Source: Desulfomonilia bacterium
GTDB lineage: Bacteria; Desulfobacterota; Desulfomonilia; UBA1062
Direction: 5' to 3'
DNA: 64,000 nt
Assembly (NCBI GenBank): GCA_050014195.1
Contig: JBEKDT010000020.1
Location: 24,006 to 88,005, forward strand
Part shown: positions 36,635-63,578 of the stretch, one piece after another
Layout: every line of letters starts with the position of its first letter
Position numbering within the stretch: the first letter of the stretch is position 1
Translations under genes and position numbers: made by a program
The notes under the pieces: model-generated
Told to the model about the DNA's origin: nothing
What the model saw: only the letters and a program-made list of their open reading frames with translations
Databases searched by the model: none

Positions 36635-37606
36635 TTACAAAAGCGCTGCCACATAAAAGTCCAGCTCGGGCGCGGCCTTTCGAACAACAGAGAATTTTCT
36701 GCCGTACATTGTGTGTTCAAAGCATTCGCAGGCACGTATTTTTCGGGAAAGTTCCGCAAGGTCTTCCGGTTTGCCTTGCTCAAGATTTCGCTCTACATCA
36801 ATATAGTGTTTGACCGCCTGGGATGCCTGCCACGACGGTTTCTGCTCAACAAACGGGTCCATTTGCATGGCCTGAAGGGCGTCCGCGCTGGCACCGACCA
36901 GTGTTGCGCCGCCGGAGATAATGATGATACGGTTTTTGCTCTTATCTACCGTGGAGGCGTTTACCCACCCCAGATTATAGTGCACTCCGCTAAACCCACA
37001 CATTTCGGGATCATCTTCCCGCTTATAGACCGGGGCATGGATAGCCTGAATAAAACAGCCAAGCAGCTCGATAAACGGACTGGGCGCCCACCTCGGGATA
37101 CGTTGTGGATTCTGCCCGGCATCCACCCAGCCATAATAGTCATAATAAGTAATCCCGCTTGCGCAAACCTTCACCGCATCGAAACCGGGTGGAAACGCAT
37201 TGCCGAAATTCGTATTTGTCTGTCCCACAACCATGGATTTTTTATCGATATACAACACTTCGTCACAGTATCGATTTCTTGCATATGCATCACGGAGAAA
37301 TGGGCGCATATACTCGTATAACCGCAATTCCTTCTTAATAGCGTTATCTACGGGCACCGCGCCGGTTGCGCCGACAACACCGTTTCCTGCCTTTCCTTCG
37401 TCCGGCGCCCAGATGCAGGATATATTTTCCTTCCATTGATATTGCGGGGCCATGCTGTCGATGTCCGTATCATAGGAAGACACATTGCGAAACAGCGCTT
37501 CCATCCGGGTCGCGATCTCCTGCGAAGTTTTTCTGGCCTCCACCGCCGAGGACTGGATCTCTTCAGCAACCCATTCAATTTCCTCGATGATATTTTTCAT
37601 ACTCAT
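36635..37606 (-). CDS. Soluble Cache-like domain protein (hypothetical)
   Basis: WAPSPFIELLG...IHAPVY...GFSGVHY resembles the dCache pocket motif; no TM segments or output domain. Confidence 0.55.
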   Translation of the reverse strand: MSMKNIIEEIEWVAEEIQSSAVEARKTSQEIATRMEALFRNVSSYDTDIDSMAPQYQWKENISCIWAPDEGKAGNGVVGATGAVPVDNAIKKELRLYEYMRPFLRDAYARNRYCDEVLYIDKKSMVVGQTNTNFGNAFPPGFDAVKVCASGITYYDYYGWVDAGQNPQRIPRWAPSPFIELLGCFIQAIHAPVYKREDDPEMCGFSGVHYNLGWVNASTVDKSKNRIIIISGGATLVGASADALQAMQMDPFVEQKPSWQASQAVKHYIDVERNLEQGKPEDLAELSRKIRACECFEHTMYGRKFSVVRKAAPELDFYVAALL

Positions 37607-37650
37607 ATCACCTTAACATGATCAGACCATGTTCATTGTAATCTCATACC

Positions 37651-38820
37651 TTAGTGTTGTTTCTTGTAATCCGGATTCACAGAACAGTGCATTTTACTCT
37701 CACCATGTAACCAGAAACAACACTTGTTGCATCGGATACATTTTCTTATCTCTCCTTCTTTGCCTTGTGCTGACTTCCTTACAAAATCCTGGTCTGCAAC
37801 CTGACTTCTTCCGATTGCAATGAGATCCGCTTTCTTTTCGGTAAGTATGGATTCTGCTGTCTTAAGACTGGTAATCGAACCAACTGCTATGACAGGTAAA
37901 TTCGTATATCCTTTTATTTGGGATATTATCTCGACATGGGGGGCTTCGCCGAGATCTTTGCCCGGCATGCATCTCTTAAATGATTCCGTCTGAGTCCCTA
38001 CAGATACATGGAAGATATCAACTCCGGCTTTTTCAAGAATAGGGATAATCGTTTTATAGTCTTCCGGCTCAAGCCCGTCTTCCAAAAAATCTTTAGCACT
38101 TATTCTGACAGAAATAATGACATCATCACCTATTTTCTTTCTGCTCTGTTTAATGATCTCTTTTAAAAAGCGAGTCCTATTTTCAAGGCAGCCACCATAC
38201 TTATCTTTCCGTTTGTTTGTGCGGGAAGATAAGAAGCCATGTAATAAATAGCCATGTGCTGCATGAAACTCGATCACCTGAGCTCCAGCCAGCGCACCTC
38301 GGTAAGATGCCTCCACAAATTGATTGCGTACCCGCTCAATGTCTTCTTTCGTCATTTCTCTTAATTTGTACCCTGAACTTAATTTTGAAAGAACAGGATC
38401 AGGTACATTACTCGCGGCAATAAGCGCGTCTACCCCGGGAGGCGGAGCTAATGCCTGCCTCCCATTGTGCGCAAGCTGGAGTGAAACACCGCATCCATAC
38501 CCTTTCAGCATAGTAAAAAGTTTCTTCAAGCCGGGTATGAACTCATCTTTGTCGATCCTTATTGATCCTTCATAGCCGGGAGGTACTTCGCCCACGATTC
38601 CTGCTGCGCCAACGGTGATAAGGCCTGCTCCACCTTCAGCCATTTTCAGGTAAAAGCTCGTAAGTTCATCAGACACCTTGCCTTGATTTGCAAAGTTTAC
38701 CACCCATGGAGGGACAACAATTCTATTTGGCAATGTAAGTTTTTTTATTGCCAGAGGTGAAAAAGTCTTCGGAAAATTTGATTGTGCATATTGCATGTTG
38801 TTGAGATCTACTGTCATCAT
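37651..38820 (-). CDS. NADH:flavin oxidoreductase (Old Yellow Enzyme family)
   Basis: LPNRIV, QLAHNGR, HAAHGYLLHGFLS, NKRKDKYGG and CIRCNKC. Confidence 0.92.
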   Translation of the reverse strand: MMTVDLNNMQYAQSNFPKTFSPLAIKKLTLPNRIVVPPWVVNFANQGKVSDELTSFYLKMAEGGAGLITVGAAGIVGEVPPGYEGSIRIDKDEFIPGLKKLFTMLKGYGCGVSLQLAHNGRQALAPPPGVDALIAASNVPDPVLSKLSSGYKLREMTKEDIERVRNQFVEASYRGALAGAQVIEFHAAHGYLLHGFLSSRTNKRKDKYGGCLENRTRFLKEIIKQSRKKIGDDVIISVRISAKDFLEDGLEPEDYKTIIPILEKAGVDIFHVSVGTQTESFKRCMPGKDLGEAPHVEIISQIKGYTNLPVIAVGSITSLKTAESILTEKKADLIAIGRSQVADQDFVRKSAQGKEGEIRKCIRCNKCCFWLHGESKMHCSVNPDYKKQH

Positions 38821-40509
38821 TCATTTCCCTCGTTTTGCCATTTCCTCAGCACGCAGATCCTTCCTTAATATCTTGCCAACCGTGCTCTTCGGGAGAGACT
38901 TCCTGAACTCGACTTCATCAGGCCATTTGTATTTTGCCAGTTTATCCTTGCAGAAGGTTATGATTTCATCAGGAGTGGCAGTATCTCCATCCTTCAGAAC
39001 AACAAAGACTTTTACTGACTCACCGCGACTTGGATGCGGCACACCAATGGAACAAGCTTCTGCCACTTTCGGGTGCTGGTAGAGCACCTCATCAATATCC
39101 CGCGGATACACATTTAATCCTCCGGATATGATCATATCTTTAAGTCTGTCCACGATATAGAAATATCCGTCATTATCCATCCTGGCGATGTCTCCGGTAT
39201 GGAGCCAGCCGTCCCGGAGGGTCTCGTCGGTTTCTTCAGGCTTTCCCTTATAACCGCGCATAACCTGCGGACCTTGTATGATAAGCTCTCCTGATTCACC
39301 GACAGAAACATCAGTCTTCCGGTCATTGATATCCACCAGGCGGCACTGCGTATCCGGCATTGGGATGCCGATGCTGCCAAGCTTCGTCTTACCTTTCGCA
39401 AATGGGTTGCAATGGGTCGCTGGAGAGGATTCGGTCATACCGAACCCTTCGCAGATAACAACCCCGGACTTTTCCTCGAATTGCCTTATTACATCTACTG
39501 GGAGCGGAGCGCTGCCCGAGAAGCAGCCCGTAACATAAGAAAGATCGAGGTCATTTATTTTCGGATGATTGAGTATCCCGATATACATAGTAGGAACCAG
39601 GGGCAGGAATGTGGGTTTGAATTTTACAAGAGCCTCAAAGAGCTGTTCAGACTGAGGCCTTGGTACAAGGATATCACTCCAGGCCATGTAAACCGCGTAA
39701 TTCATGGCGACCGTCAGCCCGAACACATGGAAAAATGGTAAAGCACCAAGCATGACCTCTTTCCCTTGTTTGAGTTTGGGAAACCACGCTGCAATCTGCT
39801 GGACGTTCTTGCTCAGATTTCCGTGCGTAAGCTCTACACCTTTAGAAACACCTGTTGTTCCTCCGGTATATTGGTATTGCGCAATGTCATCCAGCGCAAG
39901 CTTAACCTCAATATTTTCCGGTTTATATTGCGCGATCATATCCTTCCACCGATATACATTTTCTGCTGGTTTCACATCTGCGGTTAGCTTCTTCTTCTTT
40001 GCCACCAGGGGGAAGAGCAGGTTCTTAGGAAAGGGGAGGTAATCGCCGATAGATACAACCACTATCTGCTTGATAGAGGTCTTCGGCCTGAGATCGATCA
40101 TCCTGTTGGTCACCAAATCGATGGTTATGAGGACCTTTGCGCCGGAATCATTGAATTGATGGAGAAGTTCTTTATCCGAATAAAGCGGATTGTTCATGAC
40201 AACAATCCCACCCAACTTCAGGATGGCATAATACGCTATGACGCATTGGATGGTGTTAGGCAAAAGGATCGCGATGCTATCGCCCTTCTTAATGCCAAAG
40301 TCAGCAAGGCATGTTGAAAAGCTGTTCACCATGTCTTTCATCTTTTGATACGTTATTTTGTAACCCATGAAAGACAGCGCTACGTTCGTTGGATAATTTC
40401 TGGCAGCTCTTTCAAGAAATTCGGGGATACATAAATTTTCATATTGAATTTTTTCAGGAACACCTATCGGGTAAGATAACAGCCATGGCTTTTTTTCACT
40501 GTATCTCAT
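38821..40509 (-). CDS. fadD: Long-chain fatty acid-CoA ligase
   Basis: QYTGGTTGVSKG, GFGMTE, LHTGD, DRLKDMI and LPKSTVGKI. Confidence 0.9.
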   Translation of the reverse strand: MRYSEKKPWLLSYPIGVPEKIQYENLCIPEFLERAARNYPTNVALSFMGYKITYQKMKDMVNSFSTCLADFGIKKGDSIAILLPNTIQCVIAYYAILKLGGIVVMNNPLYSDKELLHQFNDSGAKVLITIDLVTNRMIDLRPKTSIKQIVVVSIGDYLPFPKNLLFPLVAKKKKLTADVKPAENVYRWKDMIAQYKPENIEVKLALDDIAQYQYTGGTTGVSKGVELTHGNLSKNVQQIAAWFPKLKQGKEVMLGALPFFHVFGLTVAMNYAVYMAWSDILVPRPQSEQLFEALVKFKPTFLPLVPTMYIGILNHPKINDLDLSYVTGCFSGSAPLPVDVIRQFEEKSGVVICEGFGMTESSPATHCNPFAKGKTKLGSIGIPMPDTQCRLVDINDRKTDVSVGESGELIIQGPQVMRGYKGKPEETDETLRDGWLHTGDIARMDNDGYFYIVDRLKDMIISGGLNVYPRDIDEVLYQHPKVAEACSIGVPHPSRGESVKVFVVLKDGDTATPDEIITFCKDKLAKYKWPDEVEFRKSLPKSTVGKILRKDLRAEEMAKRGK

Positions 40510-40531
40510 TACAAGCTCCTTTCAACTGGAA

Positions 40532-41374
40532 TCATTCATTAAAAAAATTCAAGACAATTTGATTAAACTCCTCCGGCTTCTCGAAGTTGGGCAAATGACC
40601 AGACTGATCAATGATGTGAAGTGCGGAGTTTGGTATATTCTCTTTGGCATAATAAGCATGACTTAGGGGAAAGCTTGCATCATACTTTCCCCATATGATT
40701 AAAGTCGGCGCTGATATCTGATATAAGCTGGACTTAATCTGATGAATCATGTCTTTATACGGTCCGAATATATTGCAGAAAGAACGTAATATACAAAGGA
40801 GTGATTTCTGTGCACCCGGGAGTGCAGATAATTCATAATAAAAGTCGATGATCTCCTCATCCAATATCTTTGGGTCAAAGACGAGGGGCTTTAAAAACTG
40901 ATATGTCATCTTTCTGCTCGACCGGGTCAACAATTCGCCTATGATTGGCAAAGATACAACACACATTGAAAAAGGCAGATCTGTCCCCAGCCCGCCACTG
41001 TCGACCAAAATGAGCTTATCGATTTTATTGGGGTATTGAACCGCAAACTTAAGAGATATGGCACCACCGAGAGATATCCCCATGAGGCTTGCTTTTTCGA
41101 TGTTCAGTGCATCCATGAAATCAGAGACAAATCGTGGTATAAATGTGAAGAAATCAGGATGTTGAATCTTATCTGAACGGCCGAATCCGGGTATATCAAA
41201 TGCAACCACCTTATAATCTTTTGAAAGAACGCCGATATTGCGCTGCCAGATCTCTACGGATGTTCCGAACCCGTGTATAAGGACGATGGTCTTTCCTTTT
41301 TCACCCGCCGACCAATAGCGAGTATTAATATCTCCAACCTTGATATATTGATCCTTATAGAGCATCATGGTCAT
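40532..41374 (-). CDS. Alpha/beta-fold hydrolase
   Basis: LIHGFG, GFGRS, GISLGG nucleophile elbow, WGKYD and GHLP. Confidence 0.9.
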   Translation of the reverse strand: MTMMLYKDQYIKVGDINTRYWSAGEKGKTIVLIHGFGTSVEIWQRNIGVLSKDYKVVAFDIPGFGRSDKIQHPDFFTFIPRFVSDFMDALNIEKASLMGISLGGAISLKFAVQYPNKIDKLILVDSGGLGTDLPFSMCVVSLPIIGELLTRSSRKMTYQFLKPLVFDPKILDEEIIDFYYELSALPGAQKSLLCILRSFCNIFGPYKDMIHQIKSSLYQISAPTLIIWGKYDASFPLSHAYYAKENIPNSALHIIDQSGHLPNFEKPEEFNQIVLNFFNE

Positions 41375-41547: not shown

Positions 41548-41587
41548 AGTATACTGTTAGTATACTATTAATATATTTGCCTGTCAA
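41548..41587 (-). promoter_or_regulatory. sigma70 promoter with overlapping GTATAC-N5-GTATAC operator
   Basis: TTGACA (41587-41582)-17bp-TATACT (41564-41559); AGTATACT-GTT-AGTATACT at 41548-41566. Confidence 0.8.
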
Positions 41588-41726: not shown

Positions 41727-42383
41727 ATGACTACGAAATATAAGGTAGTTCTGGCGGAAGATCATGTAGTTCTCAGACAGGGGCTTCGCTCCCTCCTTGA
41801 AAAAAGCGATGAATTCGGTGTGGTGGCCGAGGCTTCCGACGGTCTCGAGGCTATCCGCTGTGTGCAACAGACTATGCCCGACATCCTTATCATAGACCTC
41901 ACCATGCCTCGTCTCACGGGAATGGATGCCATCAGGGACATTAAAAAGATACATCCCGGCATCAAAATTATTGTACTTACCGTTCATACCGCAGAGGAGT
42001 ATGTCTTCGAGAGTCTCAAGTCCGGAGCTGACGGATATGTGCTGAAAGCGGCCGACTTCAGTGAGTTGGTCATGGCAATCCATTGTGTACTCCAGGGAAA
42101 GACCTACATAAGCCCTGATATCTCTGATACGGTGGTCATGGGGTATCTCAAAGGCGGTACGGAAAAAATCCCCACAACAGGCAAAGAAGGCCTCACTCCG
42201 CGTGAACGTGAGGTCCTTAAACTGGTTGCCGAAGGATATAAAAACCGAGAAATAGGGGAAATGCTGTGTGTAAGCATCAAGACAGTGGAGAAACACCGTG
42301 AGAACATAAAACGCAAGCTCGATCTATCCAGTACTTCGGCAATGATTGCTTATGCTATAGAGCACGGCCTAGTCAGCCATTGA
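41727..42383 (+). CDS. NarL/LuxR-family response regulator
   Basis: AEDH, DLTMP, GADGYVLK, LTPREREVL and KTVEKHR. Confidence 0.93.
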   Translation: MTTKYKVVLAEDHVVLRQGLRSLLEKSDEFGVVAEASDGLEAIRCVQQTMPDILIIDLTMPRLTGMDAIRDIKKIHPGIKIIVLTVHTAEEYVFESLKSGADGYVLKAADFSELVMAIHCVLQGKTYISPDISDTVVMGYLKGGTEKIPTTGKEGLTPREREVLKLVAEGYKNREIGEMLCVSIKTVEKHRENIKRKLDLSSTSAMIAYAIEHGLVSH

Positions 42384-44259
42384 GAGGCCATACAAACTTT
42401 ACAATAGTGCCCCTTCCTTCATCTGATTCTATTGAAAACCTGCCCTGAGAAAATGCAACCCTTTCGCGCATGCTGGCTATTCCAAGGCCACATCTGTTTT
42501 TCTGCATCTTGGGAACATCGAAACCCATCCCGTTATCTTTGATGATGAATTCCAAGGCATCCACAGTTTTGTGCATAAAGATTTGAACATGATCGGCATT
42601 GCTGTGCTTGACGATGTTATTCATTGCCTCTTGGAGAACCCGGAAAATCACGATCTTAATATTTTGAGGTATTTCGGAATCTTCAAGGGATACATTCTTT
42701 TCTATCATGATATTTTTGTACACCTTGCCGAACTCACGCAGAAACCAGTTGATGGTTGCAATGAGCCCCAAATCATCCAGAATGGAAGGCCTGAGGTCCA
42801 TCGACACCTTGGAAACATCCATGATCGCTTCCTTGAGCAGGGCGATATTTGCACGCAGCTGCTCTTCCATGCTTTGCCGGTCCATTTTTTCAACATTACT
42901 CAAGAGAAGATTTTCCGTACTCACTTTAATGGTGGACAGATATTGGCCGATGCCGTCATGCAGTTCCTGCGAAATTCTCTGGCGTTCATGCTCCAGAACA
43001 TTCAGATGTTTCTCATAGAGATTACTCAGCTCCTGCTGGTAACGGAGAAGCTCATCTTCCGCCCTCTTCTGATCCGTAATGTCATGGATGTGCGTAAGAA
43101 CAAGGTTGTTCGGAACATAGGCATGGGTAATGGACAAGTGCCTTTCATCTCCGGAAAACACCACCATTGTCTGCCGTTGAACGATCTTATGTTCATTGAA
43201 ACAAATTTGAATATCTTCGCAGATCTCGGGATTAGCACTGAATAGCTGCTTGGCGCCGGCGCCTAAAAGATCGGAGATCTTTCCGCTCGTGAATTTATTC
43301 ATGGCAAGGTTATATTCATCAAGAATAAATTCACCGTTGGTGTATCTCCATGTCATAACAGGGACCGGGCTGCCGAGGAACAACGCCCTGAAACGTTCTT
43401 CGCTCTCCTTCAGCGCAGCAAGGGCTTTCCGTTGCTCAGTGACGTCTTCGATATACTGCACGAGAATATTGGGAGTGACAAAGAATGAGACCGTGTCGAC
43501 AAATCGTTCGTTGCCGGGAATGAGAAAATCACAGAACGTCTCAATCCTGAGCATGCCCTTCTTCCGGTATGTTTCATAGATCAGGTCTACGACATCATTC
43601 CTGCCTCTTGTTGCATAGAGATCATGTACCGTACATCCGGTATAATCTTTTATCTTGCCTTCCGTATACCCTTCCAAAGTCGGGTTGAAGCCTATCAGGC
43701 GTAACTCGCCGTTGATCTCCTGCCATGTCTGTACGCAAAATGGCGTATTAACCGTGAGGGCTTTGGAAAGCTCCTTGGACATGAATGATTTTTGCTCAGA
43801 CACTCCAAGGGTTTCGAACTGCCGATAGCATGTCAGGCAGAATTCCTTTCCGCCTGATACTATTAACTTACTGCTCTGCTCGCATTGGAATATGGTCCCA
43901 TCTTTCCGACGTCTGCTGACCCAGATGAATTCACCATTCGTAATGTTTTCTTGGATAAAGGGATCAGGCACGATCCTGAGGAATATTTTTGGGAGCAACT
44001 CGGTTTGCCGTAACTTCTGCATCTCTTCCCGGCTATAACCGAACATACGGCAAGCCAGATTATTACAATCGTAAATCATGCCATCATCTTGGTAAAGCAC
44101 GACAGCTACCGGTAATTCACGCAGCAGATCGGACAGCATCCTTGAGGTGAATTTTTCTAATCTTGATTCTTTCGCAAGGGTAGACTTAACATCGCCCTTA
44201 GGCGGGTTCTCTTTGTTTTTATGCAGCTTGGATTTTGAAGCCTGTTTATGTGAAATCAT
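42373..44259 (-). CDS. Cytoplasmic multi-PAS histidine kinase (HisKA_3)
   Basis: ERQRISQELHDGIGQ, QEAMNNIVKHS, DNGMGF and GLGIASMRER; no TM segments. Confidence 0.92.
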   Translation of the reverse strand: MISHKQASKSKLHKNKENPPKGDVKSTLAKESRLEKFTSRMLSDLLRELPVAVVLYQDDGMIYDCNNLACRMFGYSREEMQKLRQTELLPKIFLRIVPDPFIQENITNGEFIWVSRRRKDGTIFQCEQSSKLIVSGGKEFCLTCYRQFETLGVSEQKSFMSKELSKALTVNTPFCVQTWQEINGELRLIGFNPTLEGYTEGKIKDYTGCTVHDLYATRGRNDVVDLIYETYRKKGMLRIETFCDFLIPGNERFVDTVSFFVTPNILVQYIEDVTEQRKALAALKESEERFRALFLGSPVPVMTWRYTNGEFILDEYNLAMNKFTSGKISDLLGAGAKQLFSANPEICEDIQICFNEHKIVQRQTMVVFSGDERHLSITHAYVPNNLVLTHIHDITDQKRAEDELLRYQQELSNLYEKHLNVLEHERQRISQELHDGIGQYLSTIKVSTENLLLSNVEKMDRQSMEEQLRANIALLKEAIMDVSKVSMDLRPSILDDLGLIATINWFLREFGKVYKNIMIEKNVSLEDSEIPQNIKIVIFRVLQEAMNNIVKHSNADHVQIFMHKTVDALEFIIKDNGMGFDVPKMQKNRCGLGIASMRERVAFSQGRFSIESDEGRGTIVKFVWPLNG

Positions 44260-44340: not shown

Positions 44341-44586
44341 CTACCCCTTGGCCTTTTCGTTCCTTTTTAACTTAGTTTTAATAAAGAGCACCGGCAGTGA
44401 TAAAATAAAGCGAATGACCTTCCAATTAAGCATGAGCTCGACCATCTCGAATATGTCTTCTACCGTGAAATAAATCGTGGAATCCCAGGCTCCGAGTTTT
44501 CCCACGGTGATAAGCCTTCCCTTTTCAGCGGTAACTTTGCTGATGGTAATTTCCATGTCTCCGGCCGGTGATTTCATCAATGGCAT
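44341..44586 (-). CDS. Small hypothetical protein (81 aa)
   Basis: MPLMKSPAGDMEITI...GKLGAWDSTIYF; GGAG RBS before ATG 44586. Confidence 0.65.
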   Translation of the reverse strand: MPLMKSPAGDMEITISKVTAEKGRLITVGKLGAWDSTIYFTVEDIFEMVELMLNWKVIRFILSLPVLFIKTKLKRNEKAKG

Positions 44587-44608
44587 AATGTTTTCTCCGT
44601 TTTTTAGG

Positions 44609-44645
44609 GGAGGCAGAGACGCGGAGGCAAAGCGTCTCCGCCTCC
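44609..44645. other. Intergenic stem-loop
   Basis: GGAGGCAGAGACGC/GCGTCTCCGCCTCC. Confidence 0.5.
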
Positions 44646-44657
44646 TCGTGCAAGGTA

Positions 44658-46751: not shown

Positions 46752-46866
46752 CTGGGTTCGTATTTTTAAGATCCTCTGAATCGGTAATTATAGAGAGATA
46801 TCGATGACTGTACGTGATCTCTCATTCATTCCGATTCCTTTTGTATTTATATAAACTTATTAAATC

Positions 46867-54491: not shown

Positions 54492-54520
54492 TGCGCTTCC
54501 TCCCAATTGAACTATGATGC

Positions 54521-55930: not shown

Positions 55931-56019
55931 ATCACTTCCCTCCCATAGTGAGTTGTCCATGGATTTTTTTTATTCAATTTCTCGGCCTCGCAATTCACGT
56001 TCCTGGAAACACCCATTAA

Positions 56020-56058
56020 GTATACTAAGAGTATACACATTGAATCATATGCTGTCAA
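56020..56058 (-). promoter_or_regulatory. sigma70 promoter with overlapping operator
   Basis: TTGACA (56058-56053)-17bp-TATACT (56035-56030); GTATAC-TAAGA-GTATAC at 56020-56036. Confidence 0.8.
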
Positions 56059-56165
56059 CCTTATTTTAATTAGCATCCGTTGTATTCTTCAACCATTTGT
56101 CAATCATGATCCTTTCCTGTTCCATTGCTTCATATATTCTACATAAGTATACTAATGGTATTGTT

Positions 56166-56410: not shown

Positions 56411-57715
56411 CTACTTGCACAACGCGGTAAAACCACCTAAAGAAAATTGATTGCTGTCGATGTTGGTGCCACACTTATAATCCATATGGCTTAATTGCAC
56501 AGTTGCGTGTTTGGAACGCTCATCAACAATTATCTGTAACGGCATAGAAATCCAGTTGACAGTTTTTGTCTCGTCTTGACCCATTCCCCATCCAAACCAG
56601 AGTGTTTTCCAGTATTTCCCAGTTCTGTCATAAATGATCTTCCAATATGCGACATTGGTCTCCTTATCAACATATATAATCTGCCTGCCATAATTATAGT
56701 ACGTATCTTTTGGGATGCCTTCGATTATCCACACAGGCCGCTTTGTCCAAATCAGGCTGTCAACATGCCATGGCGCAGCCGAATATCCCGGTTGCCCTTT
56801 CTTCTCATAGCTCCATACCAGGAGGTCTTTATTCTTATAATCAAATACCCATTCGCCGTTTTTATTCTGATTTACCCGAACGGGTTGTGACCCTATAAAC
56901 CCCCCGATGACCTCTCCTTCACCGATGAACTTCCATTTGAAATTATCTATAGCGCCGTCATATCCGCCATAGGCTCCATCATCCCTCGCAAAGTCCGACC
57001 CGAACAATGCATCAGAACGGCCTGCCGGGGTCATTTGTCTTACTCTTCGGATTGCTGGAACATATCCGAAAAGCATATCATTCTTTTCCGTTCGATAACG
57101 CCAGGTCATCATTGCTGTGCCGGCCATGTCATAAGGACTCGTAACGACTATCTGATTTTCTGCTTCCAGATTGTCAGGATTGGACCATGCCTTTGCCGGC
57201 TCATACCCATCAAAAGGTTTGCTGTACCAGTCAGCATAAATTGACCTTTCATAACCGGTTTTCCGTCCTATAAACTTAACATCCATTTTGGTCTTCAGCG
57301 GTCCATTTACATCTCTTATATAGAGGGTATTCCACATAATTTTATCAGGACCATCCGGATCAGTAATTTTTACCCCAGGGAAAGGTATTCCTTTAATGAA
57401 CTTGGGGGATTTTCCCGTTGATGCTTCAACAATGGCTTTCTTTGAAGTCAATTTATATTTCCCGATATTCTCCTTCATAGATTCCAGGACCCATGAAGGC
57501 TGCACTTTCCCGGGATCATAATCGAGTTTGCCGTATTTGACGACCATCTCACCCGTCTCTACCCATTTCAGGGCACTATCAGGCATAATACCTTTCAGTA
57601 CTTGCCAATTATCTTTATTGACGCTCTGGGTTTCGGCAGCCGGAGCACTCGATGCATAGATGATCAACATCAATATTATCATGAAAATTGTTTTAAAATG
57701 TCTGTAATTTTTCAT
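56411..57715 (-). CDS. DUF1329-domain periplasmic protein (LolA-like C-terminus)
   Basis: Signal peptide; GIPFP, YVPAIRRVR, FGSDF, YVDKET and YDRTGKYWK. Confidence 0.88.
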   Translation of the reverse strand: MKNYRHFKTIFMIILMLIIYASSAPAAETQSVNKDNWQVLKGIMPDSALKWVETGEMVVKYGKLDYDPGKVQPSWVLESMKENIGKYKLTSKKAIVEASTGKSPKFIKGIPFPGVKITDPDGPDKIMWNTLYIRDVNGPLKTKMDVKFIGRKTGYERSIYADWYSKPFDGYEPAKAWSNPDNLEAENQIVVTSPYDMAGTAMMTWRYRTEKNDMLFGYVPAIRRVRQMTPAGRSDALFGSDFARDDGAYGGYDGAIDNFKWKFIGEGEVIGGFIGSQPVRVNQNKNGEWVFDYKNKDLLVWSYEKKGQPGYSAAPWHVDSLIWTKRPVWIIEGIPKDTYYNYGRQIIYVDKETNVAYWKIIYDRTGKYWKTLWFGWGMGQDETKTVNWISMPLQIIVDERSKHATVQLSHMDYKCGTNIDSNQFSLGGFTALCK

Positions 57716-57749
57716 AATGCGTTCTCCCGTATGAATTTTCTATCTAGTC

Positions 57750-59225
57750 TTAAAAAACAAGACTGGCCTGTAAAGTAACCTGTTGCCGATCCTTCAAAAT
57801 ACCCACACTGACATCTCTATCCCCGGTCATTAAATAATATGACAGCTTGAAAATCCATGGCTGGAATGTCTTCTCAATTGAAGGGATGTACAAAAAGGCA
57901 CCCCGCGGATCCCATATTATTGCCAGTTGTGGTGTAAGGGTACCTGACATATATGTTGTCGATGTGACCAAAGTAAACTTCTGATCATACCGGGGCTGTT
58001 CGATGAATGCTCCTGATGGGTAGCTATTCACCGGAATCTTCATCCTACTGTCATAGTCTTGGTATGATTCTGCAAAATACTGTAAATATAAATTAATCAT
58101 AGAGGTATCATTGATAAGTCTGAACCAGAAATTCTTATCCAGGCCGACCATGTAGCGGAATACATCCTTTTCCGGGACAGACCCTGTTACAAATTTGCCG
58201 TACAATGCAGGTGCATTTATTTGGGGAATGAAGACTGGCTCATCCCAGAAATAGGCAGCCTCTGTCCGGATAATGGCCTCTATATGCGGTTCAAAGAAGC
58301 TCATGCTGGCACCGGATACCTGTTCGGTCTTATAAGTGAGATCCTCAGCCACATTACCCGTGACCGTAGGATCGATCGTCACGACTGGAGCAGGAGTGTC
58401 CACGATAGTCTGAAAATGTGCAAGTGATATATTAAATGTATCATTGACTACGCCTGTTACCCGGGCACCCATACGGCTGTTCTGGAATGTTGCATCGGGA
58501 TCATGCAGCCTCAACGGGACGCTTGAAGGCGGTGATGGATAGGCATAAGGTGTCCCGAGGGGCGCAAAGGGTGCTACTTCTTGACCGTTCCAACCGGGAT
58601 TTAAGAAACCCTCCATGGTAAGCGAAGAAACAGGACCTACTTTGCCGAAATTATAATTCCCCCGGATCATCCAGATAGGTATCCGGCGGTCATCCAGATC
58701 TTCAAAAGTCCCGCCGAAAGTGTTATCAAGAGGGTTGATCCTGTCCAATACCTGAAAAATGTCTGTCTCACCAAATGAAAGGTTCTGTTTTCCGATGCGG
58801 AAAAACCAAGGTCCTTGGCCATAATCAAGATAGCACTCCCAGAGTTTATCTGACTTCGACATATCGTCAATCGCCACTTTATTCGTTTCCCTTAACTGCT
58901 GTAATGCCTCCGGACCATAATCATAAACGCCATCATATAAGAAACGACCTACAATATGAAACTTCAGATCTGGAGTGGTTTCAGATGGTCTTGAAAGCAC
59001 ATCATTCAATTCAATCAGGGCAAGGTTCCGCTGTTGAACAAGATTGCCCTTGGCAATTTCAGGAGAAGTATATCCCTCGGAATCGGATGTACGGACAGAT
59101 ACCCTTGCTTGGATTTCTCCTTTCAGCTCAAGATCATCATTAATGGAATAAGCGTAAACTCTTGCATAGATTATTACAGATGCAATCGAAAAAATTACCA
59201 ACAGACAATATCTTAATACCTTCAT
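57750..59225 (-). CDS. DUF1302-like outer-membrane beta-barrel protein
   Basis: Signal peptide; RIGKQ..FGE.D, DRINPLD, RIPIWM, KDRQQV and C-terminal Phe. Confidence 0.8.
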   Translation of the reverse strand: MKVLRYCLLVIFSIASVIIYARVYAYSINDDLELKGEIQARVSVRTSDSEGYTSPEIAKGNLVQQRNLALIELNDVLSRPSETTPDLKFHIVGRFLYDGVYDYGPEALQQLRETNKVAIDDMSKSDKLWECYLDYGQGPWFFRIGKQNLSFGETDIFQVLDRINPLDNTFGGTFEDLDDRRIPIWMIRGNYNFGKVGPVSSLTMEGFLNPGWNGQEVAPFAPLGTPYAYPSPPSSVPLRLHDPDATFQNSRMGARVTGVVNDTFNISLAHFQTIVDTPAPVVTIDPTVTGNVAEDLTYKTEQVSGASMSFFEPHIEAIIRTEAAYFWDEPVFIPQINAPALYGKFVTGSVPEKDVFRYMVGLDKNFWFRLINDTSMINLYLQYFAESYQDYDSRMKIPVNSYPSGAFIEQPRYDQKFTLVTSTTYMSGTLTPQLAIIWDPRGAFLYIPSIEKTFQPWIFKLSYYLMTGDRDVSVGILKDRQQVTLQASLVF

Positions 59226-59294
59226 ATAGCCCCCCTTTTCCTCTTGTAAGTTCCTCTGTATTTTTAATCCTGCAACTTTTGAATCCCTGATGAA

Positions 59295-61658
59295 TCATTC
59301 AAGGGGTATCATTCCCCTATTAGCTTTCGGTTTGAAGATTGTTACCAAGACTGGTATCAATATGAGGGCATTGATCATGTTGAGGAGCATTAAAATCGTG
59401 AGGAGTAGCCCCATCTCTGATTGGAATTTCATATTTACGAATATCATGAAGAAAACTCCTGCCAGCATGGTAGATTCCGTGAAAACAATGGTTTTTCCTG
59501 TCGTATCCATAGCTCTCCTGTTCGCAACTGTATAATCTCCCGTGCCGGCGTACTCTTTATTAATTCTGGCAAGCAGGTAGATACCGTAATTGATGCCGAT
59601 GCCCACAGCAATCGCAGCCACAGGAAGTGAATTAATATTCACATCAATGCCGTAAATAAGCATGAACACCTCTGTGATGATCTGGGACACGGCAAGGGGA
59701 ATAATAAGAATAAGCCCGCTTTTAAAGGACTTGAATGTTATGGTGCAAAGCAGAAAACATGCGAGGAAAACAACGATGAGAGATACCCAGTACGAATATT
59801 CCACTTCTGCATTCACAGCATAGAGGATGCCCAGAAGACCGCCAGCAAGCCGGTATCTCACCTTATCAGATTTGTGGTTTCTAATGTATTCGCTGGCCTT
59901 TGCAATGCATTTCTTGATAAGATCGCTGTTATAGGACTTATAAAAGCAGGTGATGGTCGCATTCGTCCAACTGTAATCCACATAGGCATCCATCTCACCG
60001 GGAGATGCATTGTTCCTGATTATGTAGCCTATCTGGGCGAGGTCTCTATCTTTTTTAGGGATCATCTCCCACTTGGGATTTCCTTCATGAAATGTTCGGT
60101 AGACCCGTTTTATCATGTTATTGAAGGTTAACGTTCCTCCTGCCCCACCCTCAGTCTCCATGTAATTTTGAAAGTCTTCCATTGACTTCAATGTGTTGTA
60201 ATTCTTGATCGCACCAGGCTCTTTCCCTTCGGCGATAATAATGAGCTGGGTGGCACCCACGAAGTTCTTGTTAAAGAAACGGAAAGACTCATTATACGTA
60301 TGCTGAGGAAACAGGATCGCAGAGCCGGCTTCGGTATCGCCGATCTTAAGACTTCGCGTATAAATACCGCCAGCAACCAAGATAATTGCCACGATGCCTA
60401 CTATGACCCAACGGCTCTTGCCTTCAGATGGCTTCACCAGAATCTGGGAAACCTTGCTGTAAATCTGGCCGCGCGTTTGTCGCTCTATTTTCGCTGCCGC
60501 CGGGGGTTTTAAGAAAGAAAGGAGGATCGGATTCAATGTCGGTACGGTGATCAAGATGGTCATTACCCAAAAGGAGGAGAAGAACCCCAAATGACGCATG
60601 ATCGGTATCGTCGCAACGGATATCAGCAGAAGACCTATCGCATCGGTTAAGGTGGACAAAGCAGCCGGAGGAATCATTTCTCCGTATCCACGGATAAGAG
60701 CTTCCTTTCTGTCTCCAATTCTTAAGTACTCTTCGTAGTATCTGGACATGCACTGAACCGAGTGGCTCATGAGACGTGCAGATATGATGAGAGGAACCAC
60801 CAGGATGAGCGGATCCAGCGAATAGCCCAACATCTTTGCAAAACCCAGTCCCCATATCGCACTTATAAATGCAGAAAAGAAGGGAATGAATATCCCCTGA
60901 AGGGTGCGGAAATAATAGAAGAGGAGAATAAGGAGAACACACAATGTCACAACCAGCATTTTCTCAATTTGAGGAGCCAGGCTGTAGATGTACGCGTAAA
61001 GGGCGGGATACCCAGTTATATATATGTTGTGATCTTTATCAGTCTCTTCCTTTTTTATCTTCTCAATCTGTTTGTACACCTTAGCCGGATCCCAGCCTTC
61101 TTCCCAGAATCCTGCATAGATCGCTGCGGACTTGTCATCGGGAGAGACATAAAAACCCCTTATTCCTTCATTGCTGTAAATTGAGCGTTTGAATTCTTGT
61201 AGACCGGATTCGCTTCTTTCGATTCCAGGATGCAGTAGTGGTTTTAAAATTATTCCCATCCCGGTCACTTCAACATTTTTAATCTTAGGATGGGTGATGG
61301 AGGCCAGCTGTGCCGGATTACACCCCTCTACCTCCAGCATGCCCTGCGTAATCCGGTTAATCTTATCGATTGTCTTCCAGTTATAAATATCCCCCTTCTT
61401 GACCTCCACAGCAAGAACCATGACATTGGCGCTGCCGAACATGCTCCGGTATTGGTTATAGAGTTTTATATAGGGGTGGCGGGGAGGGTAAAATGATATG
61501 AAATCAGTAGCAACTTTCAAGTGCCAGGCGTAATAACCGAACACCGCAGTACAAGCAAAGATCAAGATGAGCGCCGGGCCTCTGAATCTTAGAATGAATG
61601 CCACATAGCGTTCTTGCAATGTCATTTTCTTATCATTGTTGAGAAAATCATTGTTCAT
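59295..61658 (-). CDS. RND/MMPL-family transporter
   Basis: Two repeats of TM plus periplasmic domain plus TM cluster; AVGIGINYGIY and TTGKTI. Confidence 0.9.
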   Translation of the reverse strand: MNNDFLNNDKKMTLQERYVAFILRFRGPALILIFACTAVFGYYAWHLKVATDFISFYPPRHPYIKLYNQYRSMFGSANVMVLAVEVKKGDIYNWKTIDKINRITQGMLEVEGCNPAQLASITHPKIKNVEVTGMGIILKPLLHPGIERSESGLQEFKRSIYSNEGIRGFYVSPDDKSAAIYAGFWEEGWDPAKVYKQIEKIKKEETDKDHNIYITGYPALYAYIYSLAPQIEKMLVVTLCVLLILLFYYFRTLQGIFIPFFSAFISAIWGLGFAKMLGYSLDPLILVVPLIISARLMSHSVQCMSRYYEEYLRIGDRKEALIRGYGEMIPPAALSTLTDAIGLLLISVATIPIMRHLGFFSSFWVMTILITVPTLNPILLSFLKPPAAAKIERQTRGQIYSKVSQILVKPSEGKSRWVIVGIVAIILVAGGIYTRSLKIGDTEAGSAILFPQHTYNESFRFFNKNFVGATQLIIIAEGKEPGAIKNYNTLKSMEDFQNYMETEGGAGGTLTFNNMIKRVYRTFHEGNPKWEMIPKKDRDLAQIGYIIRNNASPGEMDAYVDYSWTNATITCFYKSYNSDLIKKCIAKASEYIRNHKSDKVRYRLAGGLLGILYAVNAEVEYSYWVSLIVVFLACFLLCTITFKSFKSGLILIIPLAVSQIITEVFMLIYGIDVNINSLPVAAIAVGIGINYGIYLLARINKEYAGTGDYTVANRRAMDTTGKTIVFTESTMLAGVFFMIFVNMKFQSEMGLLLTILMLLNMINALILIPVLVTIFKPKANRGMIPLE

Positions 61659-61670
61659 CTGAATACTCCA

Positions 61671-62636
61671 TCACCAAGATATTTCTTGACCTTTCAGCTT
61701 GAATGTGAGTCCGTGTGCCCCTGAAACAAAGCCGCTTGTCGAGCCGGTTGTGGGAGATATTTTAACGTTGCATAACCAGAACAGCTGGATCTGCAGAGGG
61801 ACGTTCAATACTTTCCAGGTTTTCCCGGCATCACTAGTCATCAGAACAGTACCGCGGTCTCCTACGGCATATCCCCTATCACCTTGCAGGTCGATCCCAT
61901 ATATGGATTGCTTTGAAGGACTATCCGAACGGGTCCAGGTTTTGCCGTCATCACGTGAATAGACGATACCCCCCTCCAGACCCCCTGCGATGAATTTTCC
62001 ATCATGCTCGCTCAGACAGAACAGACTTTGCTCAGCTATTGAAGGAACCTTTATCCAGGTTTGGCCCTGGTCGGTTGATCTGAATATGCGACCATATTCC
62101 CCAACTATGACTCCACATGTTTTCGTCATCCTGACCGAATAAAGCACCACATCTTCTGAAAGGTGCACATCTTTCCAATTCTGCCCGCCATCATCGGTGA
62201 CAACGATTGCTCCCCAATCACCAACTGCACAGCCATGGATAGGATCAGAAAAATATATGCTGAAGAGATCTTTATCCGTACCGCTCTTTTGCTTTACCCA
62301 AGTATTTCCGCCATCTTTTGTGTGGAGGATGATTCCTGACCTGCTGGAAATCCATCCATTTTTACTGTCAGGGAAGCTTACAGAAAACAACCGCTCTGAT
62401 GTTCCACTCGGGATCTTCATCCAAGTTTGGCTATCATCCTTGGATAAGAATATTTGTCCTCTGTCGCCAACAAGAATGTTTTGTTTTTCAGCTATAAAAG
62501 CAGAATCAAATATGTTGTCTCGGATTTCTTTCGATTCCAGATATTTCTGCTTTTCTCCTGCATGAATCTGTCCGCATATGAGTATCATAAAAATTGATAT
62601 CAGAGATAACTTCTCAATAAATCTGATCTTTCTCAT
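61671..62636 (-). CDS. YCF48-like BNR-repeat beta-propeller protein
   Basis: Repeated VG..G.I..T.DGG.TW units; signal peptide. Confidence 0.9.
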   Translation of the reverse strand: MRKIRFIEKLSLISIFMILICGQIHAGEKQKYLESKEIRDNIFDSAFIAEKQNILVGDRGQIFLSKDDSQTWMKIPSGTSERLFSVSFPDSKNGWISSRSGIILHTKDGGNTWVKQKSGTDKDLFSIYFSDPIHGCAVGDWGAIVVTDDGGQNWKDVHLSEDVVLYSVRMTKTCGVIVGEYGRIFRSTDQGQTWIKVPSIAEQSLFCLSEHDGKFIAGGLEGGIVYSRDDGKTWTRSDSPSKQSIYGIDLQGDRGYAVGDRGTVLMTSDAGKTWKVLNVPLQIQLFWLCNVKISPTTGSTSGFVSGAHGLTFKLKGQEISW

Positions 62637-63499
62637 GGTACATCTACTCCATAGAGTTTTTCCAGATTCGAATAATATGAAACACCCAGGAAGTTATTGA
62701 GTTCAATGAAGGTTGTGATCATATCCTTGAAGTCTCTTTGTTTACCGGTCTCTTTGAGTCTCTTTAACTCCTCAATACATCCCGCGAGCGCCCCGACGAG
62801 ACATACGCCGGGGTAGAGCGCAACGGAATACCCCATCTCTTTCATTTCCTGCGCAGAAAAATTTGGTGTCTTCGGGGCTAGATTGAGAATGAGAGGTCTT
62901 GACTTAAGCATCCCCGGTATTCTTGCAACCTGTTCCCGGTCAACAGGTGCTTCAATGAAAAGGATATCAGCCCCTGCCTCTGCAAATCTGTGTCCCCGCT
63001 CGACAGCCTGATCAAACCCCTCGATCGCCAGTACATCCGTCCTTGCTATGATGAGAAATTTTTCATCCTGACGGGCATCAACCGCTGCCTTGATTTTTCC
63101 AACCATCTCGGCCGCATCGATTACTCTCTTCCCCTCCATGTGACCGCATTTCTTCGGCCACACCTGATCCTCAATGTGGATAGCAGCCACACCGGCCTTT
63201 TCATATTCCTTCACGGTCCTGACTACATTGATGGGGTTCCCATATCCGGTATCTGCATCGGCAATGAGAGGAATCTTAACCGCAGCAGCAATTCTTGTTG
63301 CATTCTCAACCATTTCAGTCATGGTCAGAAGGCCGACATCGGGATAAGCAAAGTGAGAAGCCGAAGTTCCGTATCCGGTCATGTAGACTGCATTGAACGT
63401 GTAACTTTCAACAATCCTTGCACCCAAGGCATCGTAAACACCCGGGGCCTGGACAAATTCACCCCGTTCTATCATTTCTTTCAACTTCCCTCTCACCAT
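62633..63499 (-). CDS. Isocitrate lyase/PEP mutase family C-C lyase (PrpB/Dml-like)
   Basis: PGVYD, YMTGYG, DADTGYG, IEDQ..PKKCGH, IARTD and FIEAP. Confidence 0.92.
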   Translation of the reverse strand: MVRGKLKEMIERGEFVQAPGVYDALGARIVESYTFNAVYMTGYGTSASHFAYPDVGLLTMTEMVENATRIAAAVKIPLIADADTGYGNPINVVRTVKEYEKAGVAAIHIEDQVWPKKCGHMEGKRVIDAAEMVGKIKAAVDARQDEKFLIIARTDVLAIEGFDQAVERGHRFAEAGADILFIEAPVDREQVARIPGMLKSRPLILNLAPKTPNFSAQEMKEMGYSVALYPGVCLVGALAGCIEELKRLKETGKQRDFKDMITTFIELNNFLGVSYYSNLEKLYGVDVP

Positions 63500-63537
63500 A
63501 TTTTATCCCTTTCCCAAAAAGTTTGACACCACCCTTC

Positions 63538-63578
63538 AAGTATACCGTTGGTATACTTTAAAGCCTTTTATCTGTCAA
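63538..63578 (-). promoter_or_regulatory. sigma70 promoter with overlapping operator
   Basis: TTGACA (63578-63573)-17bp-TATACC (63555-63550); AAGTATAC-CGTTG-GTATACTT at 63538-63558. Confidence 0.8.

Follow-up and report, generated by a model that had tools for sequence, protein, structure and literature searches.

What is broken down by the genes of a 27-kb island in the genome of an anaerobic peat bacterium, and by which route? The island lies at positions 36635-63578 of a 64,000-nt stretch of DNA, here called the window, from the Desulfomonilia assembly GCA_050014195.1 (contig JBEKDT010000020.1, positions 24,006 to 88,005). In our numbering this is C20:24006-88005 of a 29-contig, 4.2-Mb genome (G000), and the host is an anaerobic peat Thermodesulfobacteriota bacterium. 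The island encodes members of the MmgE/PrpD, PrpF, LeuCD, isocitrate lyase (ICL)/PEP-mutase and MBL-fold families, and its units share a palindromic operator. As the likeliest reading, though at about even odds, we propose that the island is a repressor-controlled regulon for the CoA-independent catabolism of substituted itaconate, maleate or paraconate-type compounds.

Between 36635 and 63499 we found 21 genes, 20 open reading frames (ORFs) on the minus strand and one, encoding a response regulator, on the plus strand. All genes that the initial annotation, made from the letters alone, had listed in one block (36635-63578) were recovered with Pfam and NCBIfam, on the minus strand except for that regulator. 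Four transcription units were drawn from the gene spacing, one strong terminator-like hairpin and the promoters. Unit i (63499-56411) begins with the lyase gene, followed by the genes for the BNR, HAE3 RND, DUF1302 and DUF1329 proteins; the hairpin (56379-56352), with 12 pairs the best in the region, lies directly 3' of the DUF1329 gene. Unit ii (55960-47032) encodes the PrpD-like and PrpF-like proteins, LeuC, LeuD, the MBL-fold hydrolase, a racemase-like protein and, as last gene, a fusion of an aldehyde dehydrogenase (ALDH) and an iron-dependent alcohol dehydrogenase (FeADH). Unit iii (46751-42373) holds the genes for a TetR-family regulator, a 421-aa ORF, a small ORF and a PAS histidine kinase, with the response-regulator gene convergent to it, and unit iv (41374-36635) those for an alpha/beta hydrolase, a FadD-like ligase, an old yellow enzyme (OYE) and a 323-aa ORF. 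The core consists of six of these genes:

62633-63499, minus strand, ICL/PEP-mutase family (Pfam PEP_mutase, 170.8 bits)
54521-55960, minus strand, MmgE/PrpD family (Pfam PF03972, PF19305)
53370-54506, minus strand, PrpF family (Pfam, NCBIfam; PDB 3g7k)
51977-53230, minus strand, LeuC (NCBIfam subfamily models)
51455-51976, minus strand, LeuD (NCBIfam LeuD/DmdB subfamily)
50629-51357, minus strand, MBL-fold hydrolase (Pfam Lactamase_B)

To see which genes stay together elsewhere, related loci were collected with an alignment of 14 PrpD-like relatives. This gave 79 fetched loci, one genome per species, against which all island proteins were run by tblastn, the sampling being anchored on PrpD alone. 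A near set of 22 loci, all from metagenome-assembled genomes (MAGs), carries a PrpD relative of at least 39% identity, and the other 57 loci form the distant set. The closest related loci are from Thermodesulfobacteriota MAGs. The PrpF-like gene is found in 17 of the 22 near loci vs 1 of the 57 distant ones, the lyase gene in 15 vs 6, the MBL gene in 14 vs 1, LeuC in 13 vs 9 and the OYE gene in 8 vs none. Among near loci with a length of 10 kb or more, 13 of 19 have at least three of four partners, and no locus of the distant set does (0/57). The near loci span four phyla, namely Thermodesulfobacteriota/Syntrophales, Chloroflexota, Acidobacteriota and Bacillota, under labels such as Thermodesulfobacteriota, Syntrophales or 'Deltaproteobacteria', Dehalococcoidia, Korobacteraceae and Clostridia, the last including Pseudoflavonifractor, Oscillospiraceae, Acetatifactor and Peptococcaceae. 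The core of PrpD, PrpF, LeuCD, lyase and MBL genes is co-conserved. A loss of this linkage in other genomes, which would have spoken against the catabolic island first suggested, was not seen.

The PrpD-like protein belongs to a large group (2565 relatives were found) and is encoded by a single copy in the genome, with a probable true start that gives 469 aa. It is a member of the MmgE/PrpD family by both Pfam domains and stays below both PrpD equivalog cut-offs of NCBIfam (55.8 vs 950 and 21.6 vs 575). Its best PDB matches are the B. subtilis 'IRG1' protein (158 bits), the iminodisuccinate (IDS) epimerase (140 bits) and cis-aconitate decarboxylase (CAD, about 100 bits, best 103). H99, D104, D105, H113 and K280 are invariant in 14 diverse members; the published catalytic residues of the family were only partly recovered as invariant in this 14-member alignment, with a mapping deduced from spacing. 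According to the accessible part of one report, all characterised MmgE/PrpD enzymes use C2/C3-substituted 1,4-dicarboxylates via C2 deprotonation, the member from Pseudomonas/Cupriavidus works on the free acid as an (S)/(R)-methylsuccinate isomerase, and the B. subtilis 'IRG1' protein has no shown decarboxylase activity (PMC12290011). The Pseudomonas itaconate cluster with an MmgE/PrpD enzyme also encodes a 2-hydroxyparaconate lactonase, as stated in the part available of a second report (PMC9875883).

The PrpF-like protein matches 3g7k, the 3-methylitaconate isomerase (Mii) of E. barkeri, with 362.8 bits, compared with 243.8 bits for PrpF and 219.8 bits for the oxalomesaconate isomerase LigU, which bears out the likeness to Mii that had been claimed at the outset. 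Lys and Cys are conserved at the positions aligned with K62 and C96 of 3g7k, which the 2009 work of Velarde et al. reportedly found to be catalytic in Mii. In NCBIfam the protein stays below the cut-offs for prpF (277.9 vs 440.55) and for the oxalomesaconate (OMA) tautomerase. Its nearest assignment is a predicted Mii-type isomerase.

The island LeuD passes the LeuD/DmdB subfamily model of NCBIfam (168.9). LeuC passes subfamily models only and fails the LEU2 equivalog (437.9 vs 610.65). The genome holds a housekeeping leuCD pair on another contig (C11), within an ilvBN-ilvC-leuA-leuCD-asd row, whose LeuC passes the same cut-off at 665.7, and a fused aconitase on contig C14. By these family placements the island LeuCD is a third paralogue, distinct from the housekeeping pair. 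In a maximum likelihood tree of 16 LeuC sequences, the window enzyme forms an island clade with those of L011, L002 and L016 (support 99/100), and the Clostridia clusters form a clade of their own (support 100/100).

The ICL-family enzyme contains the stretch EDQVWPKKCGH, identical to that of the petal death protein, and because of this identity it is taken as a lyase and not as a PEP mutase. It stays below the prpB equivalog of NCBIfam (269.3 vs 354.4). The MBL-fold hydrolase has an HLHWDH motif at residue 98 and an N-terminus that is not signal-like; it matches AiiA-type lactonases in the PDB with about 80 bits. Its nearest placement is as a predicted cytoplasmic enzyme of the AHL-lactonase/pyridoxolactonase branch, while its scores stay below all curated lactonase cut-offs (AiiA 106.4 vs 375, pyridoxolactonase 102 vs 325, AttM 75.7 vs 390).

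Taken together, the core would handle free acids with a succinate backbone and no CoA esters. In a first step the MBL-fold hydrolase would open a lactone or ester. The PrpD-like enzyme would then deprotonate C2 and eliminate a beta-hydroxyl group, giving an alkylidene-succinate of the itaconate type; alternatively it might epimerise or decarboxylate a related acid. The Mii-type isomerase would shift the double bond to give a 2,3-substituted maleate, the LeuCD-type hydratase would add water, and the ICL-family lyase would cleave the resulting substituted malate into a 2-oxoacid and a carboxylic acid. We hold the last three steps, isomerisation, hydration and cleavage, to be probable from family placement and co-conservation; the first two, and the role of the ALDH-FeADH fusion, we infer. 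This fusion would make one carboxyl group from an alcohol via the aldehyde, a task that might fall elsewhere to an aldehyde ferredoxin oxidoreductase (AOR) with a short-chain dehydrogenase/reductase (SDR) or an aldo-keto reductase (AKR). OYE would remove an extra double bond, and FadD would activate the acid product and, together with a POR-type enzyme, convert the products to CoA esters.

Neighbour genes were annotated with Pfam in 12 of the related loci. AOR genes occur in four of them (L008, L013, L020 and L023), three of these adjoining a ferredoxin-type gene or domain, SDR genes in five and AKR genes in three. The core is also accompanied by enoate reductases (about 650 aa) that have both an OYE and an FAD domain, by one to three extra PrpD paralogues, by transporters of the TRAP, MFS or ABC type and by regulators of the GntR or LacI type; a PTE-family protein is encoded in L016. 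Ene reduction and alcohol/aldehyde oxidation thus recur via non-orthologous genes, from which an oxidation step in the pathway gains moderate support.

The evidence that the units are controlled together comes from a 19-bp palindrome, AGTATAC-N5-GTATACT, which lies over the -10 box of three operon promoters, with a weaker site upstream of the TetR gene. A search for AGTATAC-N5-GTATAC with up to two mismatches gave 13 matches on both strands, equal to 7 distinct sites, where 0.42 +/- 0.78 were expected from 100 shuffles, none of which reached 13. The sites are:

63539-63557, operator 1, perfect palindrome, -10 region of the lyase/envelope promoter (TTGACA, 17 nt, TATACC, minus strand)
56146-56164, weaker operator by the PrpD-to-BdhE promoter, 2 mismatches
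56019-56037, operator 2, 0-1 mismatch, -10 box of the PrpD-to-BdhE promoter
50623, operator-like site, 2 mismatches, probably chance
46866-46884, operator upstream of the TetR gene, 2 mismatches
41548-41577, operator 3, overlapping sites at 41548 (0-1 mismatch) and 41559 (2 mismatches), between the hydrolase and response-regulator genes

At the main sites, read on the minus strand, TTGACA and 17 nt precede the palindrome and its first half-site is the -10 hexamer (TATACT or TATACC). Promoter scans of 36-46 kb and 46-64 kb gave as best sites 41587-41559 and 56058-56030 on the minus strand (11/12 each), and these promoter-like sites (TTGACA-17-TATACT) terminate within the operator sites 41559 and 56019. 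In all 4.2 Mb of the genome, the operator with 0-1 mismatch is confined to this island apart from a single place at the end of contig C14; across 1.31 Mb of fetched loci, and apart from the window's own copy (L001) and the C14 site (L087; L086 is a further C14 stretch), matches with at most one mismatch lie only in the islands of L002 and of a relative genome, G001 (pieces L011, L081, L082 and L083). Operator 2 is kept at the orthologous promoters of L011 (at 9853) and L002 (at 9966). G001 carries operator sites before the lyase gene, before the PrpD gene and between the hydrolase and TetR genes. Over-represented, placed over -10 boxes, restricted to the island but for one site and kept in relatives, a repressor-type operator common to the units is well supported, and the shared operator of the initial annotation is upheld, also by its conservation in two related genomes.

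The palindrome overlaps the promoters of the target operons and also has a site upstream of a regulator gene, as in a predicted regulon. We infer from this arrangement that the TetR protein is the candidate repressor; it would bind the palindrome over the three sigma-70-type promoters and be released by the substrate or an intermediate. Its orthologue in G001 is 67% identical and adjoins two operator sites. The response regulator and PAS kinase are conserved, with 84% and 68% identity in L011 and 81% in L002. The 421-aa ORF, which lies between the genes for TetR and the kinase, encodes the best conserved protein of the island, with 90.6% identity to G001 (the enzymes reach 57-88%), and this position suggests that it helps to sense or to make the inducer. 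It had been called a nitroreductase-like protein. The ORF is there, and this fold label comes solely from look-alikes in ESM Atlas, where hypothetical proteins of about 440-460 aa reach TM 0.91-0.93 and a nitroreductase cluster TM 0.42; Pfam and NCBIfam give no match.

The genes around the core are as follows:

61671-62636, minus strand, BNR (Pfam, NCBIfam)
59295-61658, minus strand, MMPL/HAE3 RND (Pfam, NCBIfam)
57750-59225, minus strand, DUF1302 (Pfam, NCBIfam)
56411-57715, minus strand, DUF1329 (Pfam, NCBIfam)
49820-50593, minus strand, Asp/Glu/hydantoin-racemase family (Pfam, 74.9 bits)
47032-49689, minus strand, ALDH-FeADH fusion, BdhE family (Pfam Aldedh, Fe-ADH, ADH_Fe_C)
46092-46751, minus strand, TetR-family regulator (Pfam TetR_N)
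44658-45923, minus strand, 421-aa ORF (no Pfam or NCBIfam match)
44341-44676, minus strand, small ORF
42373-44259, minus strand, PAS histidine kinase (Pfam, NCBIfam)
41727-42383, plus strand, NarL/LuxR response regulator (Pfam, NCBIfam)
40532-41374, minus strand, alpha/beta hydrolase of the meta-cleavage-product (MCP) hydrolase type (Pfam, NCBIfam; PDB BphD/HsaD, about 131 bits)
38821-40509, minus strand, FadD-like acyl-CoA ligase (Pfam, NCBIfam)
37651-38820, minus strand, OYE (Pfam, NCBIfam)
36635-37606, minus strand, 323-aa ORF (Cache/PDC-like by ESM Atlas language-model features only)

The ALDH-FeADH fusion, one chain in which the ALDH part is N-terminal and the Fe-ADH part C-terminal, aligns with PDB 9LDL (BdhE) over residues 1-869 of both proteins with 876.3 bits. 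It is a BdhE-family enzyme by this match, with a predicted conversion of an alcohol via the aldehyde to an acid. The BdhE fusions were presented in 2025 as a family independent of AdhE; according to the accessible part of that report, BdhE forms ring tetramers with a proposed interdomain channel, occurs in 43 species with an enrichment in sediments and sludge, and was assayed with ethanol, acetyl-CoA and choline only, its physiological role being left open there (PMC12454647). A second BdhE-type fusion, 56% identical, is encoded on contig C14 (C14:44889-47498; L086:6890-9550), where it adjoins genes for an SDR, a dienelactone-hydrolase-like alpha/beta hydrolase and two further ALDHs; this copy may be part of a second alcohol or lactone oxidation cluster. 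The PDB matches of the racemase-family protein are hydantoin racemases of at most 51.6 bits and the epimerase OpaE only, and no maleate isomerase is among the matches listed.

These two proteins bear on the pathway that was proposed first. In Agrobacterium, the AttKLM/BlcABC pathway for gamma-butyrolactone has an MBL lactonase, an Fe-ADH and an ALDH encoded together, and the island was read as such a lactone module feeding linearly into a Mii/DmdAB/Dml-like one, from lactone to 4-hydroxy acid, semialdehyde, substituted itaconate, maleate, malate, 2-oxoacid plus carboxylate and finally acyl-CoA. The required families do lie in one operon under one operator, BdhE would couple alcohol and aldehyde oxidation as AOR, SDR or AKR might at the clusters of other lineages, and the PrpF-like protein is of the Mii type. 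However, the scheme gives no role to OYE or to the PrpD-family enzyme, the most conserved gene and best anchor, and its AttKLM-like half did not hold: the AttM cut-off is missed (75.7 vs 390), as is that for succinate-semialdehyde dehydrogenase (SSADH, TIGR01780, 366.2 vs 646.35), and membership in AttKLM/BlcABC was rejected on these scores. The joining of the two modules, real as one operon here, is lineage-specific, since the fusion and the racemase occur in just 2 of the 22 related loci. We consider the linear lactone scheme possible, if doubtful.

As to the kind of itaconate-, maleate- or paraconate-type acid that the proposed CoA-independent route would serve, the island and its relatives differ in what they suggest. 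The envelope genes of unit i are contiguous (56411-62636) and comprise all four components of an AmeABCD-type HAE3 cassette, to which they belong. The DUF1329, DUF1302 and BNR proteins have hydrophobic N-termini, judged by eye. In Castellaniella defragrans, according to the part of the source at hand, AmeABCD joins an outer-membrane protein of the DUF1302 family with a DUF1329/LolA-like protein, a COG4447 protein and an HAE3 pump of 787 aa; it lies within the monoterpene island of this anaerobic degrader, and cells from which it was deleted were less tolerant (PMC6394551). In P. putida, DUF1302/DUF1329 and BNR/RND genes were important on fatty esters, with a LuxR-type regulator linked to the DUF1302/DUF1329 genes and a putative lactonase gene linked to the BNR/RND genes, again as given in the accessible part of the report (10.1101/2020.07.04.188060). 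By analogy, the cassette points to a hydrophobic or amphiphilic substrate. It also adjoins the core in L004. Envelope genes are present in only 1 or 2 of the 22 near loci (L011, L004), which narrows the co-occurrence first expected for the DUF1329 gene to these two.

In unit iv, the hydrolase is closest to BphD and HsaD, which are meta-cleavage-product hydrolases, and carries the GxSxG motif GISLG. OYE has a C-terminal cysteine cluster and corresponds to the FMN/4Fe-4S half of an enoate-reductase/dienoyl-CoA-reductase type enzyme, without the FAD domain. Both are conserved in G001; among the near loci as such the alpha/beta hydrolase occurs in one of 22 (L002), and the FadD family gives one weak match (L014, 25% identity).

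In LeuD, the loop that follows DTDxIxP has the residues YLMA in the window enzyme; the housekeeping LeuD has YLST there, and the Clostridia clusters have AFRA or AFRV. Work on methanogen homoaconitases is said to link an Arg at this place to a carboxylate as side chain, and hydrophobic residues to alkyl groups. For the island, the FadD-like ligase, the hydrophobe cassette and the hydrophobic residues of the LeuD loop suggest an alkyl-substituted substrate; for Clostridia, the presence of TRAP transporters and of the loop Arg suggests analogues that are small and polar. Tentatively, and with more reserve than the regulon as such, we suggest that the core could be a CoA-independent anaerobic path for paraconate and itaconate types which, here with the Ame cassette, BdhE and FadD, might serve long-chain metabolites of fungi or lichens, with a 2-oxoacid and a fatty acid as the final cleavage products. 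Speculative candidates would be alkylitaconates, alkylmaleates and paraconic acids of the lichesterinic type.

The Clostridia clusters also bring up a route for small acids, in which the PrpD-like enzyme would be a cis-aconitate-type decarboxylase, the PrpF-like enzyme would isomerise aconitate and/or itaconate, LeuCD would hydrate citraconate and the lyase would cleave methylmalate or citramalate, the substrate being plant or fungal trans-aconitate or itaconate. CADs are indeed among the PDB neighbours of the PrpD-like protein, TRAP carboxylate transporters adjoin the core in the Bacillota loci L017, L019 and L029, and the Bacillota clusters have the loop Arg, if the stated meaning of the loop holds. 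However, the CAD scores reach only about 100 bits, the best match, 'IRG1', is without shown CAD activity in the part of the source available (PMC12290011), the window loop is hydrophobic, and the route gives no role to MBL, BdhE, FadD or the hydrophobe cassette. For the island it is unlikely.

A regulon for tolerance of electrophiles and hydrophobes, in which TetR would de-repress the RND efflux system together with OYE, a glyoxalase-II-like MBL, ALDH/ADH and a nitroreductase-like protein, the PrpD-to-lyase genes being merely adjacent, would agree with the role of AmeABCD in monoterpene tolerance and efflux (PMC6394551, part available), with the presence of OYE, MBL, ALDH-ADH and the nitroreductase-like ORF, and with the operator on all units. 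It is very unlikely in our view: the same operator controls the PrpD-to-BdhE operon, the lyase gene heads the efflux-cassette operon, and Gram-positive bacteria without the cassette also keep OYE and MBL together with the core.

It is hardly credible that the island encodes a methylcitrate-cycle variant serving propionate or copies the nicotinate fermentation of E. barkeri, although the names PrpD, PrpF, PrpB-like and aconitase-like match the one and the Mii/Dmd/Dml-like families the lower part of the other, as the PrpD, PrpF and PrpB equivalog cut-offs all failed, the island has no gene of the citrate-synthase family and none for a B12 mutase, enamidase or nicotinate dehydrogenase, and these families are not listed among the proteins scanned in the 12 annotated loci. 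Membership in the methylcitrate cycle was rejected on the failed PrpD, prpB and prpF cut-offs and the lack of PrpC/citrate synthase in the island, and membership in the nicotinate cluster on the absence of nicotinate dehydrogenase, 6-hydroxynicotinate reductase, enamidase and 2-methyleneglutarate mutase from the 21 island genes.

Several observations weigh against the catabolic regulon that we prefer. Gene content, operator, co-conservation and family placements are observed, whereas the catalysis at each step, the flux direction and the substrate rest on inference. The ALDH-FeADH fusion and the racemase occur in only two of the near loci each, and TetR, the 421-aa ORF and the 323-aa ORF in none of the 22 as first fetched; in G001 the genes for TetR, the 421-aa ORF, the hydrolase and OYE sit just beyond the stretch first fetched. 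BdhE, the racemase and the operator are thus confined to close relatives. The NarL/LuxR regulator could be an alternative binder of the palindrome, and a regulon for detoxifying electrophiles would also agree with the joint presence of operator, OYE, MBL, ALDH/ADH and RND pump. As for the oxidation step, SDR and AKR genes are common, so that the recurrence of AOR alone carries weight. The MBL protein fails every curated lactonase cut-off, and its name 'lactonase' is a guess at branch level.

The hydratase and the lyase, both compared with Dmd and Dml at family level, raise further points of this kind. The lyase is about equidistant from the petal death protein (204 bits), the 2,3-dimethylmalate lyase of A. 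niger (203 bits) and PrpB (193 bits); it fails the prpB cut-off and keeps the lyase motif, and these scores single out no nearest neighbour. In L010, AcnX takes the place of LeuCD. Its large and swivel subunits are encoded at L010:8283-9930, beside a FAD-binding flavoprotein and a cytochrome c3-like gene. LeuC of L007, L008, L012 and L013 groups with housekeeping LeuC (100/100), and that of L007 passes the LEU2 equivalog cut-off. By this tree the cluster hydratase falls in three separate LeuC clades, one of them barely diverged from true LeuC, and the expected distance from housekeeping enzymes applies to the window enzyme but only in part to these four. The same four loci have the order PrpD-(PrpF)-lyase-LeuC-LeuD, L007 without a PrpF match and L012 without a LeuD match, in hosts labelled Dehalococcoidia, Thermodesulfobacteriota and 'Deltaproteobacteria', and their LeuC sequences are close to one another, with end branches of 0.10-0.25. 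This suggests an inter-phylum transfer of the entire cluster and a recent recruitment of true LeuCD.

The left border of the island is sound because the pstSCAB-phoU operon ends at 36445, immediately next to it. This operon follows two tandem genes for PHO4-family phosphate transporters (29880-36445 in all). Further left in the window, a second TetR gene adjoins genes for a molybdopterin oxidoreductase and an FmdE-like protein (16763-20297), and an AOR gene adjoins a ThiF-family gene (21726-24573); a motif scan gave neither of them a tie to the operator regulon. In a search of sequencing runs, the PrpD-to-BdhE operon was present in 24 DNA runs from peat or wetland metagenomes, and no RNA run was among the matches.

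On the right side the contig stops at 64000 within a two-copy repeat. The last 127 nt of the island contig (63874-64000) equal the start of contig C25, reversed, and contigs C14 and C8 share their final 127 nt with each other. In metagenome contigs from four runs, a 2976-nt unitig at twice the depth of the flanks begins at window position 63874, and thus a two-copy segment of about 3 kb abuts the island; these contigs did not show which flank joins the unitig. One copy of the repeat follows a LysR-type gene on C8, and the other, on C14, comes after an AOR gene and operator-like sites. The C14 segment opens with a gene whose product matches positions 1-28 of Pfam POR with its 38 N-terminal residues (E 3.8e-4, below the gathering score), and the start of this POR-gamma-like gene is preceded by two operator-like sites and, upstream, by the AOR gene. 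The 45-aa gene end at 63874-64000 (minus strand) matched no POR family in Pfam and gave a weak tblastn match on C8; we take it to be possibly the beta subunit of a 2-oxoacid:ferredoxin oxidoreductase (PorB). A join of C14 and C20 through the repeat is one of two possible pairings. If it applies, the AOR gene, the 2-oxoacid:ferredoxin oxidoreductase genes and the lyase operon would be co-directional, which would fit a pathway that releases a 2-oxoacid. In G001, no AOR- or POR-type genes were found upstream of the lyase gene.

The single families, the cassette and the BdhE fusion are all known; the combination, its spread among anaerobes and the free-acid route had no description in the full-text literature searched. 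The combination had been called undescribed, and we likewise found no description of the core in the full-text literature on the gene combination, on Mii/Dmd/Dml or on paraconate degradation, subscription papers being outside the scope of the search. Uncultured anaerobes from peat, sediments and animal guts, in four phyla, share the five-gene core. If the proposed function is true, it would provide a CoA-independent and oxygen-independent route for itaconate-family acids and lactones, which are metabolites of fungi, lichens, plants and immune cells and for whose anoxic fate the literature searched gave no account. The locus supplies a catabolic context for BdhE, and the long-chain-metabolite reading, if true, would give BdhE its first physiological role. 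It is also a case of an AmeABCD-type cassette in one operon with a catabolic lyase gene, and the 19-bp operator with its candidate repressor offers a handle for fishing out the inducer.

Compared with known systems, the island resembles AttKLM/BlcABC in having MBL, Fe-ADH and ALDH together, the latter two fused here as BdhE. The lower nicotinate fermentation of E. barkeri is said, in the 2006 work of Alhapel et al., to use Mii, DmdAB and Dml. There as here, a PrpF-family isomerase, a LeuCD-family hydratase and an ICL-family lyase (KKCGH) stand in a row, with likely the same chemistry, from substituted itaconate to maleate, malate and cleavage. Unlike the E. barkeri module, the island lacks the upstream nicotinate dehydrogenase, enamidase and B12 mutase, and has a PrpD-family enzyme and an MBL-fold hydrolase added as conserved partners.

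The itaconate-methylsuccinate cluster of Pseudomonas/Cupriavidus comprises Ict, Ich, Ccl, the MmgE/PrpD methylsuccinate isomerase and the 2-hydroxyparaconate lactonase, as described in the accessible parts of two reports (PMC9875883, PMC12290011). It shares with the island the branched-dicarboxylate setting and an MmgE/PrpD enzyme on a free acid next to a lactonase, and it has a dedicated transporter. That route, as far as these parts go, runs via CoA esters with a CoA transferase, a hydratase and a citramalyl-CoA lyase, whereas the island lacks these families and has free-acid enzymes of the Mii, LeuCD and ICL types instead; its lactonase is annotated as a ring-cleaving dioxygenase (127 aa), whereas the candidate in the island is of the MBL type; and, in contrast to Pseudomonas/Cupriavidus, the hosts of island-type clusters are anaerobes. 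BdhE (9LDL) and the island fusion have the same domain order and align end to end, with the island copy at the end of a catabolic operon. As in P. putida, a LuxR-type regulator lies near the cassette genes, and as in AmeABCD, going by the parts of these sources available, the same four components with a 787-aa RND protein are embedded in a catabolic island for hydrophobic compounds. Unlike AmeABCD, the cassette of the island stands behind the gene of a C-C lyase in one operon, under a TetR-type operator.

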